Source: an uncultured Desulfohalobiaceae bacterium (GTDB lineage: Bacteria > Desulfobacterota > Desulfovibrionia > Desulfovibrionales > Desulfothermaceae). From it: a stretch of DNA of 64,000 nt. Under the pieces are notes generated by a model. That model searched no databases. It saw nothing but the letters and a program-made list of their open reading frames with translations, and had not been told where the DNA came from. The stretch spans positions 34,301-98,300 of the forward strand of contig CAZLUR010000001.1 in the NCBI GenBank assembly GCA_964562725.1, written 5' to 3'. Below, one piece after another: positions 23,585 through 64,000 of this stretch. Numbering within the stretch: the first letter of the stretch is position 1; the number at the start of each line of letters is the position of its first letter. The translations under genes and the position numbers were made by a program.

Positions 23585-24766
23585 ATGTTTTTGAAAATAG
23601 CCAATATTTTTCTGATACTGGGGCTGCTACTCCAGAGTTGTGCATACCAAGTCCCTAAACCCGAGGAAAAAGGCCTGTTCCGGCTGAAGGAGCAAGAGGC
23701 CCTGCAGGTGGTGCAAGAGTTGGATCCCAGTAGCCAGGGGTTAACTTCCTGGCAGGACCTGGGTCCGGCATTGCGTAGAAGTCTGGAATATGTGCAGGCC
23801 AAGCCCCCGCAGGAGCAGGCCTTGCAAATCCAAGAGCTTGAAATCACCTGGGGCTGCTTGGCCCGCAACCTGGAGCTCCTCCTGGAATTGTTGCCCAGGC
23901 TGGACCAAGAGCCTGGACTGCTTGCAGAAAGTTTTGCCTGGTTTGAGTTAAGGCCCGGGCCTTTGTTCACTGGTTATTATCAGTACGAGCTGGAGGCCAG
24001 TCTGCAGCCCAGCCAGGAATATACCGTACCTCTTTTTGGCCCTCCAGAAGATTTGCAAATAGCAGATTTGGGGGATTTCCATCCCAGATGGCAGGGGCAA
24101 AGCTTGGTCTACAGGGTACATGAAGGCCGGATTGAACCTTATCCGGATCGCAAGAGCATCGAGCTGGAGAATGTACTGCAGGATAAGGCCCCGGTTCTGG
24201 CCTGGGCCAAGGATCAGATGGATGTTTTTTTCCTGCAGATTCAAGGCTCGGGACTGTTAAGACTGCCAGACGGTAGTGTGCAAAATATCGGATACGCAGC
24301 CAAAAACGACAGGCCTCACGTCTCCCTGGGTCGGGAGCTAGCCAGGCAGGGCCATCTGGAGCCTCATGATTTGAGTATGGAATCCATACAAGAATACCTG
24401 CGGCAGAACCCAGAACTAATGCCGGACATTCTGTTTTCTAACCCTAACTTTGTTTTTTTCAGGTTAACTGAAGCAGGGCCGTTTGGAGCTATGGGCCGAG
24501 AATTGACTCCCATGGTCAGTTTGGCCACAGACAGGGATATCTTGGCTTTGGGTACAGTCCTGGCCTATTCCGTGGCCTTGCCGGAAAAGGGGTCCGCGGA
24601 TAAGCTGCAGACAACTGCACTGGGCCTGGCCCAGGATGTGGGCGGCGCTATCCAGGGGCATCATCTGGATGTTTTTTTTGGTGCAGGGCAGGAAGCCAGG
24701 TACAGGGCATCCGGACTCAAAAATAAGGGCAGTGTATACTTGTTGTTGGCCGAGGAAATTTATTAA
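23585..24766 (+). CDS. mltA: Membrane-bound lytic murein transglycosylase A (lipoprotein)
   Basis: Signal peptide with lipobox LLLQSC, then MltA and 3D domains (FFLQIQGSG.L, LD.FFG.G..A); 393 aa. Confidence 0.82.
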   Translation: MFLKIANIFLILGLLLQSCAYQVPKPEEKGLFRLKEQEALQVVQELDPSSQGLTSWQDLGPALRRSLEYVQAKPPQEQALQIQELEITWGCLARNLELLLELLPRLDQEPGLLAESFAWFELRPGPLFTGYYQYELEASLQPSQEYTVPLFGPPEDLQIADLGDFHPRWQGQSLVYRVHEGRIEPYPDRKSIELENVLQDKAPVLAWAKDQMDVFFLQIQGSGLLRLPDGSVQNIGYAAKNDRPHVSLGRELARQGHLEPHDLSMESIQEYLRQNPELMPDILFSNPNFVFFRLTEAGPFGAMGRELTPMVSLATDRDILALGTVLAYSVALPEKGSADKLQTTALGLAQDVGGAIQGHHLDVFFGAGQEARYRASGLKNKGSVYLLLAEEIY

Positions 24767-24812
24767 GCAGCCATCAAGCCAGCTGTTTTGCGATTGTCTA
24801 AGGAGCTTTGTA

Positions 24813-26243
24813 ATGTTGGAATATGAAGCGGTTATAGGGCTGGAGGTGCATGCGCAGCTAAAGACAAGATCCAAGCTGTTTTGCAGCTGCTGCACCAGCT
24901 ACGGCGAAGAGCCCAACAGCAATGTTTGTCCTGTGTGTGCTGGCATGCCCGGAGCTTTGCCTGTATTGAACAAAAAGGCGGTGCAGTTTGCAGTCAAAAT
25001 GGCCTTGGCTGTGGGCTGCAAGGTGCACCGCAATTCAGTGTTTGCCAGAAAGAATTATTTTTATCCTGATTTGCCAAAAGGTTATCAGATTTCGCAATAC
25101 GAGTGCCCATTGGCCCGGGAGGGCAAGCTGGGCATCAGCGTGGATGATCAGGAGAAAGAGATCAGTATAGTACGCATTCACATGGAGGATGATGCAGGCA
25201 AGTCTATCCATGCCAAATCCGAAGATTTGAGTTATGTGGATCTGAACCGGACCGGAATTCCCTTGATTGAGATCGTGAGCGGACCTGAGCTGGGTTCTGC
25301 AGACGAGGCTGTGGCCTATCTGAAAGCACTGCGCAGCATATTGATCTATCTGGACATAAGCGAGGCCAACATGGAAGAGGGCAATTTCCGCTGTGACGCA
25401 AATGTTTCAGTCAGGCCTGCAGGCAGGGAGGATCTGGGGACCAGGACTGAATTGAAGAATTTAAATTCTTTCAGATTCGTGCACAAGGCCCTGGAATTCG
25501 AGATCAACAGGCAGATTGGGCTGTTGCTGGACGGGGAGCAGGTGGTGCAGGAGACCAGACTTTTTGACGAGGTCCAGGGAGTGACCAGGCCTATGCGGGG
25601 CAAGGAGGAGGCTCATGACTACCGTTACTTTCCTGATCCTGATCTGGCACCAGTGCAACTGCAGGAAAGGGAATTGTCTTTGTGGGCTGCCCAGCTCCCA
25701 GAACTGCCCAGGGCTAAACTGCAGAGGTTTGTCAATGATTACAGCCTGCCTGTGCAGGATGCCCAGAACTTGATTTCCGAACCTGCCCTGGCGGATTATT
25801 TCGAACAGACCGTGGCCAACTTCCCCTATGCAAGAACCGTAGCCAATTGGATACTGACTGAGATGCTGCATGAATTAAAGGCACAAAATATTTCTGTGCA
25901 GGATTGCAGGTTCGGCCCTGATTCTTTGGCTGCTTTGCTGCAACTCATCGAGATGCAGCAAATCAGCATCAAGATTGGCAAGCAGATTTTTCCTGACCTG
26001 TTCAGCTCTGGACAGGATCCTGAGCAATATGTCCAAGCGCAAGGTCTGCTGCAAATTTCCGATCAGGGGCATCTGGAGCAGATAGTGAGGACAGTGCTGC
26101 AGGAAAATCCTGATGAGGCAATGAAATTCAGGCAGGGCAAGAAAAAACTGCTGGGTTTCTTTATGGGCCGGGTAATGGCAAAGACTAAAGGCCAGGCCAA
26201 CCCCCAGTTGGTTGGTGAGCTCCTGCGGCAGGAATTGGAATAA
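24813..26243 (+). CDS. gatB: Asp/Glu-tRNA amidotransferase subunit B
   Basis: MLEYEAVIGLEVHAQL, CPVCAGMPGALPVLN, RIHMEDDAGK and a C-terminal GatB/YqeY domain. I chose ATG 24813. Confidence 0.93.
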   Translation: MLEYEAVIGLEVHAQLKTRSKLFCSCCTSYGEEPNSNVCPVCAGMPGALPVLNKKAVQFAVKMALAVGCKVHRNSVFARKNYFYPDLPKGYQISQYECPLAREGKLGISVDDQEKEISIVRIHMEDDAGKSIHAKSEDLSYVDLNRTGIPLIEIVSGPELGSADEAVAYLKALRSILIYLDISEANMEEGNFRCDANVSVRPAGREDLGTRTELKNLNSFRFVHKALEFEINRQIGLLLDGEQVVQETRLFDEVQGVTRPMRGKEEAHDYRYFPDPDLAPVQLQERELSLWAAQLPELPRAKLQRFVNDYSLPVQDAQNLISEPALADYFEQTVANFPYARTVANWILTEMLHELKAQNISVQDCRFGPDSLAALLQLIEMQQISIKIGKQIFPDLFSSGQDPEQYVQAQGLLQISDQGHLEQIVRTVLQENPDEAMKFRQGKKKLLGFFMGRVMAKTKGQANPQLVGELLRQELE

Positions 26244-50178: not shown

Positions 50179-50919
50179 ATGGGCCTGGACAGACTAAAAC
50201 ATATGCTCTGTAGTGCGCAGAACTTGGTGGCCTTTACCGGGGCCGGGGTCTCTGCGGAGAGCGGCATTCCCACCTACCGGGGGGCCAGCGGGTTATGGAA
50301 CCGGTTTGACCCGGAGAAATATGCGAACATCAGCTATTTTCTAAAAGAGCCAGCGTACTATTGGCAATTTTTTCAGGAGGTCAGATATCCATCTCTGGAA
50401 AAGGCCCTCCCTGGCAAGACCCATGAGACATTGGCCCAGCTGGAGAGAAATGGGCAGCTGCAAGCGGTGATAACCCAAAATGTTGATGGTCTGCACCAGG
50501 CTGCTGGCTCCAGCCGGGTTTTGGAGCTGCACGGTAGTTCGCGCAGCTTTCATTGCCTGCACTGCAAAAGCCGATACAGCCTGTATGAAGCATACGCCCT
50601 GCTCCAGGATAGCCTGCCCCCAAAATGCACTGAGTGTGAATCCTTGATTCGGCCGGATACGGTATTGTTTGGAGAGGCCCTGCCGGCCGATGTCCTACAG
50701 GAAGCCAGCCAGGCAGCAGAACAATGCGATCTGTTCCTGGCTCTGGGCAGTTCACTGCTGGTACAGCCAGCTGCTTCTTTGCCCTTGCTGGCCAAAAGAA
50801 ATAGGGCCAGCCTGATCATAATCAACAAAGACGAGACCCCTTTGGATCCTGAGGCAGATCTGGTCTTACATGCCTCAGCAGGCCAGACCTTGTCCCAGGC
50901 ATTGGAAGACTTGTCCTGA
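50179..50919 (+). CDS. cobB: NAD-dependent protein deacylase (Sir2 family)
   Basis: [26 protein letters not shown] and a Zn-ribbon CxxC...CxxC; 246 aa. Confidence 0.9.
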
Positions 50920-50981
50920 ACTCCTGACTGGCTTACTCCCATGCAGGTTGGTCTCAAACCTATGCAAGAAGGAATAAAGAC

Positions 50982-52325
50982 ATGCGACTGGTGATTATCG
51001 GAGGAGATGCTGCAGGCATGAGCGCGGCCAGTTTGGTCAAACGCAAAATGCCGGACTGGGAAATCACAGTCCTGGAAAAGACCAGGGATGTCTCCTTTAG
51101 TGCCTGAGCAATGCCCTATGTGATTGCTGCTCCCGGGAGGAGCATGCAGGAACTTGTGGTGCGCTCGGCAGATTTTTTTCAGGAAAAGCTGGGGCTGGAT
51201 CTCAGACTGGGTCAGGAAGTAAAAAAGATAGACCCCAGGGCCAAACAGGTCAAAGGCCTGGACTCGTCAGGCCGTACATTCTCCTGCAGCTATGATCGGT
51301 TGCTGATTGCCACTGGGGCTGATGCGATCAGACCTGATCTGCCTGGTATAGATCAGGAAGGGCTGTTTGTGCTTAAGCATCTGCAGCAGGGCAGATTGAT
51401 CCAAGAGCGTTTGGATTCTGGGCAGGTCAGGAAGGCAGTGATCTTGGGCATGGGCTATATAGCTATGGAGATGGCAGAGGCCTTGCGGCTAAGGGCCATA
51501 GAGGTAAATATGGTCAAGCCCCGGGCTGAAGTTCTGCCCTGGCTGCATCCGGCACTTTCCGAACTGGTCAAAAATGAGCTTAAGAATAATCAAGTGGGAC
51601 TCTACCCGGGATACCAGATTTTAGAGATTAAAAGCCATGAACACGGCCTGCAGGTTAAATGCGCACACGATCTGGTCCTGGAGGCTGATTTGGTCTTGGC
51701 AGCCACTGGTGTGTCCCCCAACAGCAACCTGGCTGCTGAGGCCGGGCTGGAGTTGGGCCCTGCCAGATCCATTGCCGTAGACAGCAGCATGCAGACCAGT
51801 GACCCCAATATTCTTGCGGCCGGGGACTGCGCAGATGCTTGGCATGTGGTCAGTGGACAAAAGACATGGATACCCTTGGCCCTGAGAGCGAATCGTTCCG
51901 GCAGAGCTGCTGCCCAGAATCTGCTCGGCAAGCAGGCCAAGCTGTCTGGGGTGGTTGGGAGCGCAGTATTTAAGGTCTTTGGCCTGGAAGTTGCCCGCAC
52001 AGGCCTTAGCTTCCAAGAGGCTGAGCAGTCCGGATTTAGCCCGGTCTCCATGCAGATAGAGGTCCCAAGCCGGGGACACGGCTATCCAGGCGCCAGCCCC
52101 CTGCGTGTCTGCCTTTTGGCAGACCAGGATTCAGCACGGCTCTTGGGCGCTCAAATCACAGGCCGTGAAGGGGCTGCTCACCGCATTAATGCTGCTGCAG
52201 TAGCCCTGCACAACCATATGAACCTGGCGGAATTTGCCCAAAGCGATCTGGCTTATGCCCCGCCTTTCGGTCCGGTCTGGGACCCGCTTATTGTTGCAGC
52301 CAATCAACTGCTCAAAAAATTTTGA
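50982..52325 (+). CDS. CoA-disulfide reductase / NADH oxidase family flavoprotein with in-frame UGA (predicted selenocysteine) at codon 42
   Basis: ATG 50982 (AGGAA upstream) encodes MRLVIIGGDAAGMSAASLVKRKMPDWEITVLEKTRDVSFSA, then TGA (51105-07), then AMPYVIA... in the same frame as track ORF 51111..52325. The TGA aligns with the catalytic Cys of the SFANC(A/G)LPY motif. The total of 447 codons fits the family size. Confidence 0.8.
51107..51144 (+). promoter_or_regulatory. Candidate bacterial SECIS region immediately 3' of the UGA
   Basis: Two adjacent hairpins read by eye: agcaat-gccctatgtg-attgct (51107-51128) and tgctcc-cggga-ggagca (51128-51144). The G-rich apical loop lies about 27-31 nt from the UGA. 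Not scored with any SECIS model. Confidence 0.35.
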
Positions 52326-52343: not shown

Positions 52344-52622
52344 TTAGCCCATAAGGTAATGTTTTTTTATGGGCTTGGTGATCTTCCAAGTACAGGACAA
52401 ACCTTGGGGAAAATTGACCAGATCACCCTGCTTTATGGTCACTGGCTGCCCGCCTTCCGGGGTCACAGTGACCTGGCCTTCTATTATATAGCAGGTTTCA
52501 GGTTGATCATAGCTCCAGGGGAATTCAGAGACTTCCTTTTCCCAGGTAGGCCAGGAGAAAATGTCCAGCTTATCCAGAGTCTCCTGGTCCGGATTGGAAG
52601 TGATCTTTATTTCTTTGGCCAT
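52344..52622 (-). CDS. Cupin domain protein (DUF861 / cupin_3-like)
   Basis: 92 aa with FSWPTWEKEVSEFPWSYDQPETCYIIEGQVTV.P.GG..V.I..GDLV.FP.G..C.W, typical of small single-domain cupins. Confidence 0.7.
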   Translation of the reverse strand: MAKEIKITSNPDQETLDKLDIFSWPTWEKEVSEFPWSYDQPETCYIIEGQVTVTPEGGQPVTIKQGDLVNFPQGLSCTWKITKPIKKHYLMG

Positions 52623-52925: not shown

Positions 52926-55025
52926 ATGGACGCCCAAAGGGTTAAGAGCATCTGTTTTGAATGTCATTGCAGGTGCGGAGTCCTGCTTAAGCTGCAAAAC
53001 AGCCGGCTAGTGGGGGTGAAAGGAGATAGAGATCATCCCATCAGCCGGGGCTATATCTGCCCTAAGGGGGCGGCTGCAGCCGAGATTGTTTACCATAGGC
53101 AGCGTATAACCAGGCCTATGCTCAAAACACAAAAAGGCTTTGAAACCGCTTCCTGGGACCGGGCTCTATCTATTATTGCTGAAAACATGGCTAAAGCCAG
53201 GGACAAGTATGGCCCTGAATCCATTGTCTTGGGGACAGGTACCACCAGGGGGATTGCTCCTTACCTGAATCGTTTTCTGTCAGTCTGGGGCTCGCCCAAC
53301 TTCATGGCCCCCTCCAATATGAGTGGAGGACCTATTGTTATGGGCAGTCTGGCTACAAGCGGGTTCGGCATGTCAGATCCTGATTTTGTCAATAGCCAAT
53401 GTATCCTGCTTTGGGCTCACAACCCGGAAAAATCCTGGCCCGGGCTGTATATGAACGATATACAGCAGGGCCTGGATCAAGGGGCCAGGCTCATCGTGGT
53501 GGATCCTCGGGGCACCGGCCCGGCCCGCAAGGCTGACCTCTGGCTGCAGATTCGGCCGGGCACGGATGTGGCCCTGGCGCTATGCTTTATACGTTGCATC
53601 ATTGAAAATAGATTGTATGACCAGGATTTTGTGCAGGAGTGGACCCAGGGCCTAGAGGCATTAGAGGAGCATGTTTCCAGGTATACTCCAGAAAAGACAG
53701 CAGATATCACCTGGATACCAGCCAAGCAGATTGAAGAGGCAGCCTGGATTTTTGCCCAAAACGGACCTGCAGCCATCGGTGCCGGCATGGGCGGGGTTTG
53801 TCAGGCCAATGACGCCTTTGATCTAAGCCGCGCCCTGACAATTTTAAGTGCGATCAGCGGCAACCTGGAAGTATCCGGAGGGAATCTGCGCTGTCCTTCT
53901 CCGCTTAGCAAGCGCAGCTGTTATGGTCCTGATCATGATCCGTTTTTTAATTTGCCCCGGGAACAGGCTCAGAAAAAATTAGGCCTGGACCGGTTTCCAT
54001 TGCTGGAGTTTATCCCTGTTCCTTGTCCGCCCCAGGCGGTCTGGCCAGCCATAGAGAAAGGCCAGCCCTATCCGGTCAGGGTTATGGGCCTTTTTGCCAA
54101 CAACAGTGTCTGTGCCTATCCCAACTCCATGCGGGTGCGGGATACCCTGCAAAAATTGGATTTTTTGTTTGCAGTGGACTATTTCCAGACCCCAACCACT
54201 GAACTGGCAGATGTGATCCTGCCTCCTGCGCATTGGACCGAGCGCGAGGATGTAGAGGATCTTTTGATGAAAAGCCATGTCTTTTGTCAGCGCAAGGCCC
54301 TGGAACCGGTTTTCGACTGCCGGGATGAAAAGCAGATCCTGATTGACCTGGCCCGGAAGATTGGCCTGAGCGGTTATTTCAGCACAGTGACTGAAATGCT
54401 GGATTATCGCTTGAAATATGCTAATATAAGTTTTGCTGAACTGAAACAAAAGGGCTGGCTGTTTGGCGGATTTAAGTACAAGAGCTACCTGGATAAGGGC
54501 AAATTTCGGACCCCAACCGGCAAGGTGGCACTTTATGCAGGCTATCTTCAAGCCCTGGGCATTCCAGCCTTGCCAGAGTTCTGTGAACCACCGGAAAGTC
54601 CTATCAGCAGACCGGATTTGTTCCAGGAATATCCTTTAGTGTTGACTACCGGGGCCAGATTGCTGGTCTATTACCATTCCTCGCACCGCAATATCGACTC
54701 TCTGAGGAAAAGGGTCCCTGACCCTGAATTGGAGATCCATCCTGATACAGCCCACAAGCTGCAAATATCAGATGGTGAATGGGTCTATCTGTCGTCTCCC
54801 CGGGGCCGGATAGAGATCAAGGCCAGCTTTTGCAAGGATATAGACCCCAGGGTAGTACACTCGCCGCACGGGTTCTGGTATGGAGTAAAAGACGGCTGGC
54901 AGCGGGTTAATATTAATGTACTCACTGATGACCAAAAACTATGTCCGGTTAGTGCCTCTGTATCCATCAAGGCCCTGCTCTGTCGGGTGGAAAAGAAGGC
55001 TGATCAAACAGATCAGAGATTCTGA
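52926..55025 (+). CDS. Molybdopterin-dependent oxidoreductase (MopB/DMSO-reductase superfamily), cytoplasmic, substrate unknown
   Basis: N-terminal 4Fe-4S motif CFEC-HCRC...YICPKG starts at residue 11 with no twin-arginine signal. Followed by a molybdopterin-binding core and a C-terminal MGD-binding beta-barrel; 699 aa. Confidence 0.85.
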   Translation: MDAQRVKSICFECHCRCGVLLKLQNSRLVGVKGDRDHPISRGYICPKGAAAAEIVYHRQRITRPMLKTQKGFETASWDRALSIIAENMAKARDKYGPESIVLGTGTTRGIAPYLNRFLSVWGSPNFMAPSNMSGGPIVMGSLATSGFGMSDPDFVNSQCILLWAHNPEKSWPGLYMNDIQQGLDQGARLIVVDPRGTGPARKADLWLQIRPGTDVALALCFIRCIIENRLYDQDFVQEWTQGLEALEEHVSRYTPEKTADITWIPAKQIEEAAWIFAQNGPAAIGAGMGGVCQANDAFDLSRALTILSAISGNLEVSGGNLRCPSPLSKRSCYGPDHDPFFNLPREQAQKKLGLDRFPLLEFIPVPCPPQAVWPAIEKGQPYPVRVMGLFANNSVCAYPNSMRVRDTLQKLDFLFAVDYFQTPTTELADVILPPAHWTEREDVEDLLMKSHVFCQRKALEPVFDCRDEKQILIDLARKIGLSGYFSTVTEMLDYRLKYANISFAELKQKGWLFGGFKYKSYLDKGKFRTPTGKVALYAGYLQALGIPALPEFCEPPESPISRPDLFQEYPLVLTTGARLLVYYHSSHRNIDSLRKRVPDPELEIHPDTAHKLQISDGEWVYLSSPRGRIEIKASFCKDIDPRVVHSPHGFWYGVKDGWQRVNINVLTDDQKLCPVSASVSIKALLCRVEKKADQTDQRF

Positions 55026-57010: not shown

Positions 57011-58858
57011 ATGAACCAGAATATTCAGAGATCCAATCGCTTGGCCCTGGAGAAAAGCCCATACTTACTGCAACATGCTAACAATCCTGTCTATTGGTAC
57101 CCCTGGGGGCAAGAGGCTTTTGAACTGGCCTTAAGTCAAGATAAGCCGATATTTTTGTCCATTGGCTACGCCACATGCCATTGGTGCCATGTCATGGCCA
57201 AGGAGTCCTTTGAGGACGAGGAGGTGGCAGAGCTCATCAACCAGACTTTTATCCCGGTCAAGGTGGACCGTGAGGAGCGGCCGGACATTGATGCAGTATA
57301 CATGAAAGCCTGCCACCTGGTTTCCGGTCATGGAGGTTGGCCCTTGACCGTTGTGCTCACCCCTTATAAAAAGCCTTTTTTCACAGCTACCTATATACCC
57401 AAAAAAGCGCGGCCGCCCCAGAATGGCCTTCTGGAAATCATACCTAAACTGGAGATGCTTTGGAAAAACGAACGCCAAAAAGTTTTGCAGATATCTGAAT
57501 CCATCGTACAGAATCTGCAGGAATCTGAATCCTCCGCCAAGGACGGAGTTCCTGATCAGAGCCTTTTGCAGCAGGCCGCAGAAGAGTTAAGGCAACGCTT
57601 CGATTTTGCAAACAGCGGTTTTGGAGAAGCACCCAAATTCCCTTCTGCTCATAACCATCTGTTTTTGCTGCAGTACTATGAGCAGTATCAGGAATCCGAT
57701 CTTTTGGAAATGGTGGAAAAGACCCTGCGCGCCATGCGCCTGGGCGGGCTTTTTGATCACCTGGGCTTTGGTTTCCACCGTTACTCCACTGATAAAAAAT
57801 GGCTGGTACCGCACTTTGAGAAAATGCTCTACGACCAGGCCATGTTGGCCCTGGCCTATTTAAGGGCCTTTGAGCTGACCAGGGATAATTTTTATGCCAC
57901 TACAGTCCGGGGGACCCTAGAGTATGTGCAGCGTGAACTGCTCTCAAAGCAGGGCGTATTTTATTCAGGCCAAGATGCGGATAGCGAGGGCGTGGAAGGC
58001 AAGTTCTACGTCTGGAAAGAGTCAGAGATCAAGGAACATTTATCCCAGGCTAAATCTGAATTGGCAATTTTGGCCTTTGGTATAAAAGAGCAGGGCAATT
58101 TTCAGGATGAGGCCACCAAGCAGAAGACTGGACAGAATATCCTGCATCGTTTGTCTATTCCGGAAAAGGAATTGGCTGCAAACCTGGGTCTGGGCCAGGA
58201 AGAGGTTGAAAAAAGCCTGGAGGAGGTGCGCAAGGAACTGCTTGCAGCCAGACAGGCCAGGCAGCCTCCGCAACTGGATGACAAAATCCTCACAGACTGG
58301 AACGGCTTGATGCTTGCTGCCCTGGCCGCGGCCGGCAGGATACTGCAAGATGCGCAGTACACTCAGGCTGCAATAAGCTCGGCACAATTTTTGATCAGCC
58401 GCATGCAGGACAAACAGGGCAGGCTGCTGCACCGCTACAAAGACGGCGAGGCCGCTATACCAGGCTTTTTAGACGACTATGCCTTTTTTGTCTGGGGCCT
58501 GCTGGAACTCTATCAGACCACAAATCAGCAGGAATACCTGCAGCAGGCCTCCAGGCTGACCCGGAGTATGCTAAAGCATTTCCAGGACCAAAAGCAAGGC
58601 GGGCTCTTTATGTGCGCGGATGATGCGGAGACAGTCCTGTACCGGCCCAAAGAGATCCTGGACGGGGCCATCCCTGCAGGCAATTCTGTGGCCTTAAACA
58701 ATCTGGTTTTGTTGTATAAGCTGGGCCAAGGCCAGGAATTCCGGGAGCAGGCCAAGGCATTGATCCAGGCCTGTTCTGGACTGGTGCAAAAGCACCCTTT
58801 AGGCTTTACCCACTTCCTGAGCGGCCTGGATAGTTTTTTGCGGCTTGAAAAAACATAA
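57011..58858 (+). CDS. Thioredoxin-domain protein, YyaL/DUF255 family (N-terminal Trx-like plus six-hairpin glycosidase-like domain)
   Basis: [37 protein letters not shown] and [11 protein letters not shown] closely match the YyaL family N terminus; 615 aa. Confidence 0.85.

Positions 58859-60577: not shown

Positions 60578-64000
<3,423 letters not shown>

Follow-up and report, generated by a model that had tools for sequence, protein, structure and literature searches.

A UGA codon at the catalytic position of a flavoprotein reductase gene: a predicted selenocysteine enzyme and its hairpin in a Desulfohalobiaceae bacterium

Positions 50982 to 52325 of the 64,000-nucleotide stretch of DNA analysed here (the window), which comes from a relative of sulfate reducers, very probably constitute one gene, specifying a 447-residue flavoprotein reductase in which UGA, as codon 42, is recoded as selenocysteine (Sec42) by way of an RNA hairpin; we put the probability of this at close to nine in ten (0.88). 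It is because the UGA stands exactly at the catalytic Cys of relatives, and is accompanied by a conserved RNA hairpin, that selenocysteine is very probably what is encoded. The reading is well supported, as the TGA is kept in orthologues, has a SECIS-like hairpin 3′ of it and lies between stretches under purifying selection, and as TGA ends ordinary genes. The original prediction had the UGA decoded as Sec, and this now has the backing of Sec/Cys pairs among orthologues, of a hairpin that fits the SECIS model and of dN/dS values on both sides of the codon.

Because the UGA is taken for a stop, public gene calling yields fragments of 41 and 393 aa instead of one product of 447 residues. These are the forms in which the public protein collection holds the gene, the longer entry starting at Met55, and the suspicion that it would be mis-annotated was well founded. 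The gene call is here corrected to a single (predicted) selenoenzyme, and the same error is present in every close relative found.

Table 1. Features of the gene and of its putative recoding region (positions in the window)
Feature	Position	Strand	Basis
Shine-Dalgarno-like AGGAA, 7 nt before the ATG	50970..50974	+	read from the sequence
Complete CDS, predicted 447-residue FAD/NAD(P)H pyridine-nucleotide-disulfide-oxidoreductase of CoADR/Nox type, codon 42 UGA	50982..52325	+	single frame, Pfam, PDB, NCBIfam
First dinucleotide (FAD) binding motif GGDAAG, residues 7-12	51000..51017	+	translation; kept in 45/45 orthologues
In-frame UGA, predicted selenocysteine codon 42, at the catalytic-Cys position	51105..51107	+	alignment to 6ruz, 3kd9 and 4fx9; codon comparison
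SECIS-like hairpin: lower stem 51124-51127/51146-51149, bulged U 51145, upper stem 51128-51133/51139-51144, apical loop CGGGA 51134-51138	51124..51149	+	folding, bSECIS constraints
23-nt invariant block GCTCCCGGGAGGAGCATGCAGGA	51129..51151	+	identical in all five close relatives (window gene and four others), wobble positions included
Second dinucleotide (NAD(P)H) binding motif GMGYIA, residues 156-161	51447..51464	+	translation; inside Pyr_redox domain 151-222

The reading frame and its codon 42

From the ATG, whose distance from the AGGAA had been given as 8 nt and is actually one less, 41 sense codons (MRLVIIGGDAAGMSAASLVKRKMPDWEITVLEKTRDVSFSA, ending ...DVSFSA) lead to the UGA, after which the frame continues unchanged with AMPYVIAAPG... 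until a stop TGA at 52323-52325. Translation bears out the claim of one frame from end to end, the TGA at codon 42 being its sole interruption. A mechanical ORF list breaks the frame into 50982-51107 (41 aa) and 51111-52325 (404 aa), the second opening with an ATG two codons past the UGA; the joined product has 447 residues.

Where in the protein does the UGA fall? In phmmer alignments to solved structures its column is that of the catalytic Cys of 6ruz (VSYGAC-GLPYV), 3kd9 and 4fx9, with VSHAPC-GIPYV another of the aligned motifs, and so the proposal that the TGA fills the catalytic-Cys slot of CoADR/Nox flavoproteins holds. The active-site motif, SFSA-U-AMPY, fits S-x-x-x-C-[GA]-x-P-Y, and there is no CxxxxC disulfide. 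Only one other residue, Cys283 in a GDC motif far from the active site in sequence, is Cys in all 45 orthologues described below.

A protein search, run with U replaced by C, gave as the four closest database entries one that is 93% identical (P0001) and three at 71-74% (P0002-P0004). All four entries at 71% identity or above are gene calls that lack the N-terminus (393-411 aa), and full-length relatives (about 446 aa) begin only at 62% identity. The contigs of these four close relatives (L001-L004) each have a 41-codon ORF directly ahead of the truncated call, and their translations read ...S[FY]SA*AMPYV... in one frame, with the TGA kept in 4/4. More distant orthologues came from a scan of one genome per GTDB species, among whose representatives the source genome is not included and where the best match is 62%. 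It yielded 42 related loci at 52-62% identity, all in Desulfobacterota MAGs, of which 40 cover the N-terminus; codon 42 in these is TGA in 13 (hereafter group B), TGC in 20 and TGT in 7. The overall set, with the window gene included, is thus one of 45 orthologues, 18 with TGA vs 27 with TGC or TGT, and in a neighbour-joining tree the TGA forms are scattered among the Cys forms in no fewer than four clades. Cys-containing orthologues collinear across the TGA, which it had been proposed to look for, accordingly number 27, every one of them a single, full-length protein. Metagenome pattern scans for further close relatives gave no match with a first pattern and, with a second, seven unrelated chance matches (L047-L053). 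Separately, the Cys-type homologues in three MAG loci (L042, L044, L046) extend for only 105-133 residues before a stop, and could be frameshifts, pseudogenes or assembly errors.

Might the gene nevertheless be split or shortened, the 41-aa peptide ending at the UGA and a separate protein being made from ATG 51111 or ATG 51144? The gene callers do yield exactly entries of 41 and 393 aa, and an ATG is on offer two codons past the UGA. However, a product from either ATG would have neither the FAD-binding beta-alpha-beta fold nor the catalytic residue; that a start at 51111 removes both had been foreseen, and the Pfam domain limits and structure alignments agree. The ATG at 51111 is the Met of the conserved C-[GA]-[MI]-P-Y motif, and in most group-B Sec orthologues its place is taken by Ile (ATT or ATC in 10/13, with ATG as in the window in the remaining 3/13), while the 27 Cys orthologues are undivided. 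Between TGA-bearing genes so diverged that their synonymous sites approach saturation, dN/dS is 0.06-0.20 over codons 1-41 and similar past the UGA, from which it follows that both parts are maintained as protein and that the TGA has been kept through the divergence. Homologues genuinely starting at the equivalent of 51111 were a worry of the original prediction; none such was found. Two separate products from this locus are, on these grounds, highly improbable.

A lone in-frame stop in an otherwise intact gene is also what a recent nonsense mutation would look like, and a pseudogene, or an error of sequencing or assembly, has to be weighed. Against this, 18 assemblies, independent of one another and divergent at the majority of synonymous sites, all have the TGA, dN/dS is far below 1 on both sides of it, and it co-occurs with the conserved hairpin considered below. 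Mistaken reading of a TGC or TGT had been raised at the outset, but independent assemblies keep the TGA, in all four close relatives and in 13 of the 40 distant orthologues. Mutation or error is effectively refuted already, and of the alternatives considered here it is the one to which we give least credence.

The hairpin 3′ of the UGA

The hairpin begins 16 nt past the UGA. Its lower stem pairs UUGC with GCAG and its upper stem UGCUCC with GGAGCA, its loop lies 26 nt past the UGA, and its minimum free energy was computed as -12.9 (z=-2.57 vs shuffles) and as -13.1 kcal/mol. The published bSECIS model allows an apical loop of 3-9 nt with G in the first or second loop position, an upper stem of 4-16 bp, a spacing of 16-37 nt between UGA and loop, and an MFE of -7.5 or lower (PMC13188914). 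With a 5-nt loop, G at loop position 2 followed by another G, a 6-bp upper stem, 26-nt spacing and the energy just given, the window hairpin lies within every one of these bounds, which answers favourably the call for a bacterial SECIS check 3′ of the UGA. A permissive Rfam scan of 51060-51220 found no SECIS family and gave chance matches only (Flavi_CRE, E=2.4; P1, E=4.2).

Among the five close relatives (group A) the invariant block that takes in most of this hairpin is the longest nucleotide-invariant run of the whole 1.3-kb gene, the next longest being 13 nt. Gene-wide, 22% of the degenerate codons whose amino acid is invariant are also invariant as codons, vs 6/6, all consecutive, within the block. 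Group B has a hairpin at the same place but of unlike sequence, e.g., CGACCCCC-GGC-GGGcGGUCG. Its 7-bp helix is paired in 91/91 cells across the 13 sequences; two of the pairs alternate between C-G and U-A, in 3 and in 6 sequences, with zero half-changes. The resulting covariation score was reached by 0/500 shuffles, and registers slid along the alignment pair at just 27-60%. In both hairpin versions the loop has GG at +32/+33 counted from the U of the UGA.

On the same columns the 27 Cys orthologues are 44-52% paired, and their mean folding energy is -6.4 kcal/mol vs -11.6 and -14.3 for the Sec groups (Mann-Whitney p=3e-7), a figure for which related sequences were treated as independent, as they were in the other contrasts of Sec with Cys hairpins, though these contrasts hold across several clades. 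With a bulge-tolerant bSECIS model a fitting hairpin is present in 17/18 Sec loci, its loop 26-28 nt past the UGA, vs 3/27 Cys loci, where the fitting hairpins sit at other positions. A strict implementation of the model, with a contiguous upper stem of at least 4 bp, fails most group-B hairpins, whose upper stem is of 3 bp and then a bulge. A single register for both clades was tried and rejected, as the helices are offset by about 1 nt; fitted crosswise, group A is 43% paired on the group-B structure and group B 55% on that of group A.

A stem-loop conserved 3′ of the UGA, on which the original prediction had set store, is therefore found in the TGA-bearing orthologues, with compensatory changes, and is absent from the Cys orthologues. 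Of the two hairpins that it had placed at 51107-51144, the second (UGCUCC/GGAGCA, 51128-51144) is the conserved one, and in fact extends to 51124-51149. The first (GCAAU 51108-51112 with AUUGC 51123-51127) is not conserved, being mismatched in 3/5 close relatives (at pair 3 in L001 and L003 and at pair 5 in L004), and competes with the lower stem of the conserved hairpin.

Decoding of the UGA, use of TGA and the genes nearby

On the pattern of the established bacterial pathway, the hairpin would bind SelB:GTP:Sec-tRNA(Sec) during translation and the UGA would thereby be recoded as selenocysteine. No selA, selB or selD was found in the 64-kb window, and ARAGORN found no tRNA-Sec in the window or in 46 related loci; an Rfam scan of the window at gathering thresholds gave two tRNAs and nothing else. 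Other selenoprotein genes in the window were also looked for and none was found, the frame interrupted at 51105 being the sole credible one of its kind, and the NiFe hydrogenase that adjoins the flavoprotein relative on L002 is a Cys form (DPCLAC). That the genome has the machinery for Sec insertion is suggested by the conserved UGA with its hairpin and by the lineage, the nearest named relatives of the window, as judged by its Der protein, being MAGs of the Desulfohalobiaceae (75-76%), then Desulfovermiculus (63%) and Desulfohalobium retbaense (61%).

Could near-cognate or suppressor decoding instead insert a standard amino acid (Cys or Trp) at the UGA, the hairpin doing no more than stimulate such read-through? 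The lack of Sec machinery in the window would suit such a reading. It sits badly, though, with the SelB-type bSECIS geometry, in which two hairpin versions unrelated in sequence hold their loop GG equidistant from the UGA, with the prior listing of the family among selenoproteins, and with the host group, deltaproteobacteria having been the most selenoprotein-rich bacteria in a 2006 survey (PMC1794560). Insertion of a standard amino acid is improbable, if a little less so than the alternatives dealt with above. Neither is TGA reassigned in this genome, where it is an ordinary stop: 20 of the 53 long ORFs in the window end in TGA, and for Der, Tgt and RecD2, all closed by TGA, the match to the family profile runs to its very end.

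The genes around the flavoprotein gene can be described briefly. Upstream is a Sir2/CobB-type NAD-dependent deacylase (50179-50919, +) and downstream, convergent with the flavoprotein gene, a 92-aa cupin (52344-52622, -). These flanks are shared by the window, L001 and L003 alone and are not those of L002, and no functional link is evident. The neighbourhood varies among loci, and no sulfur-transfer partner was found in it. Seven group-B Sec loci (L022, L027, L028, L035, L036, L037, L045), and one Cys locus (L032), have just downstream on the same strand a conserved ORF, about 155 aa long. In the window, the gap separating the convergent flavoprotein and cupin genes has a 9-bp inverted repeat (AGCCCATAA...TTATGGGCT, 52346-52375) enclosing a loop of 12 nt that is rich in T; this may serve as a bidirectional terminator, and was not flagged by a consensus scan. 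Further on, a 699-aa molybdopterin oxidoreductase (52926-55025, +) resembles formate dehydrogenase alpha and PhsA at scores below every equivalog cutoff. Its unbroken frame means that this is no Sec form; its homologues adjoin Cys-type flavoprotein genes in L005 and L008.

Elsewhere in the window some gene boundaries deserve comment. The mechanical GatB ORF (24636-26243, +) overlaps by about 130 nt the ORF of 393 aa that precedes it (23585-24766, +), for which there was no NCBIfam match at 1e-40; as the GatB profile begins only at residue 60-62, the true start of GatB is probably further downstream. A 615-aa ORF (57011-58858, +) had no NCBIfam match at 1e-5. Pyruvate:ferredoxin oxidoreductase (60578-63970, -) matches TIGR02176 with 1761 bits, but from model position 87, and so the true N-terminus probably lies elsewhere than at the listed TTG.

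The enzyme, its family and comparison with known systems

To judge by its sequence, the product of 50982-52325 belongs to the single-cysteine CoA-disulfide-reductase / NADH-oxidase / sulfur-reductase group and is a predicted homodimer-type, FAD-dependent NAD(P)H oxidoreductase. The Pyr_redox_2 plus Pyr_redox_dim architecture, with its FAD and NAD(P)H dinucleotide folds, is present in the 447-residue product. In Pfam, Pyr_redox_2 takes up residues 2-306 and spans the UGA position without a break, Pyr_redox residues 151-222 and Pyr_redox_dim residues 330-430 (1.8e-55, 1.9e-15 and 1e-12 for the three matches). The first FAD fold had been described as having GxGxxG; this is not strictly the case, the actual motif being GGDAAG, but that motif is conserved in all orthologues. 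Among solved structures the best match (phmmer vs PDB) is the Thermus thermophilus NADH oxidase 6ruz (E=2.6e-93, residues 2-442), followed by Pyrococcus horikoshii CoADR (3kd9/4fx9), Archaeoglobus fulgidus 6pfz, Bacillus anthracis CoADR (3cgb), Staphylococcus aureus CoADR and Enterococcus faecalis NADH peroxidase. The best NCBIfam match is to TIGR03385, CoA-disulfide reductase, with 376.3 bits vs a cutoff of 578.8, the equivalog NF007123 giving 359 bits vs 458, and the 447-residue protein reached the trusted cutoff of none of the CoADR and Nox equivalog models. Since the scores are under the CoADR cutoffs, they support relatedness at the family level only and do not assign a substrate.

By analogy with homologues, hydride would pass from NAD(P)H to FAD and from there to Sec42. 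The resting form of Sec42 would be either a selenenic acid or a selenenylsulfide made with a small thiol, for which CoA is the likeliest candidate; in turnover Sec42 would alternate between the selenolate and one of these two forms, the thiol of the selenenylsulfide being CoA or some other. The enzyme may reduce a disulfide, persulfide or polysulfide, or else peroxide or O2. No biochemical study of a Sec form was found in searches of an open-access library.

How new is such a gene? Actually, ‘NADH oxidase / CoA-disulfide reductase’ selenoproteins with the motif UGxP have been catalogued since 2004-2006 (PMC1794560, PMC1976440; reviews PMC9312934, PMC13188914). A ‘NADH oxidase’ selenoprotein family was listed in Geobacter metallireducens (Zhang et al. 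2006, PMC1794560), and a member in the Olavius delta-1 symbiont (Zhang & Gladyshev 2007, PMC1976440). The original prediction had rightly guessed that the family was probably not new, Sec at the active-site motif of the CoADR/NADH oxidase family being in the literature. The family, the position of Sec and the recoding mechanism are all already catalogued, and what we have is a solid but expected selenoprotein and no new kind of biology: a probable new member of a known selenoprotein family, set apart by a small departure in the motif (UAMP) and by a SECIS peculiar to its clade. What is added to the family is a well-documented orthologue set of 18 Sec and 27 Cys forms with two versions of the hairpin, of use in annotation and for comparing Sec with Cys.

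The occurrence of Sec forms in at least four separate clades makes repeated gain or exchange of Sec possible. On a tentative view, to which we give rather less than even chances, the window gene and its four close relatives are an all-Sec, Desulfohalobiaceae-type clade with UAMP and its own SECIS, and Sec has been gained or exchanged repeatedly at a single catalytic position, a new hairpin evolving on every occasion with its GG equidistant from the UGA. Were that so, the family would be a natural experiment on how a SECIS originates within coding sequence and on the role of Se in CoADR/Nox chemistry.

Comparison with systems already known places the gene more exactly. The Cys-type CoADR/Nox structures (6ruz, 3kd9/4fx9, 3cgb, the S. 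aureus CoADR 1yqz and the E. faecalis NADH peroxidase 1joa) have full-length collinear similarity to the window protein (E of 2.6e-93 to 1e-40), the same three-domain layout and a single redox-active residue after the first Rossmann unit, but that residue is Cys, whereas the window protein is predicted to have Sec at the same site. The Npsr / CoA-persulfide reductases (A. fulgidus 6pfz, Shewanella 3nta, E. faecalis 8a56) are homologous to it in the FAD domain and at the active site (E=1e-77 to 1e-64). Npsr enzymes are found in sulfur-metabolising anaerobes, and their defining feature is a rhodanese domain, about 100 aa long, at the C-terminus (PMC7969121). The window protein is without it, a Pfam search of the 447-residue product giving no rhodanese match, and ends after the dimerisation domain at residue 447. 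As for the RNA signal, the E. coli fdhF-type SECIS and the bSECISearch consensus are alike in being a hairpin within the CDS just 3′ of the UGA, with a small GG-bearing apical loop, a single-nucleotide bulge and a spacing inside 16-37 nt; the fdhF-type element differs in having no sequence similarity to the window hairpin, which also has no Rfam model match and whose counterparts here have a loop-UGA spacing of 26-28 nt. Closest of all is the catalogued CoADR / NADH oxidase selenoprotein family itself. It is related to TIGR03385, the best NCBIfam match of the window protein, Sec in it replaces the active-site Cys of C-G-x-P-Y, and its hosts, as here, are deltaproteobacterial / Desulfobacterota. 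The likeness to the Geobacter member WP_011365774.1 is by description. The catalogued motif is U-G-x-P, to which group B, with U-G-[IM]-P, conforms; the window gene, with U-A-M-P, and its four relatives at 71% identity or above, all of them Sec forms, have a hairpin sequence of their own.
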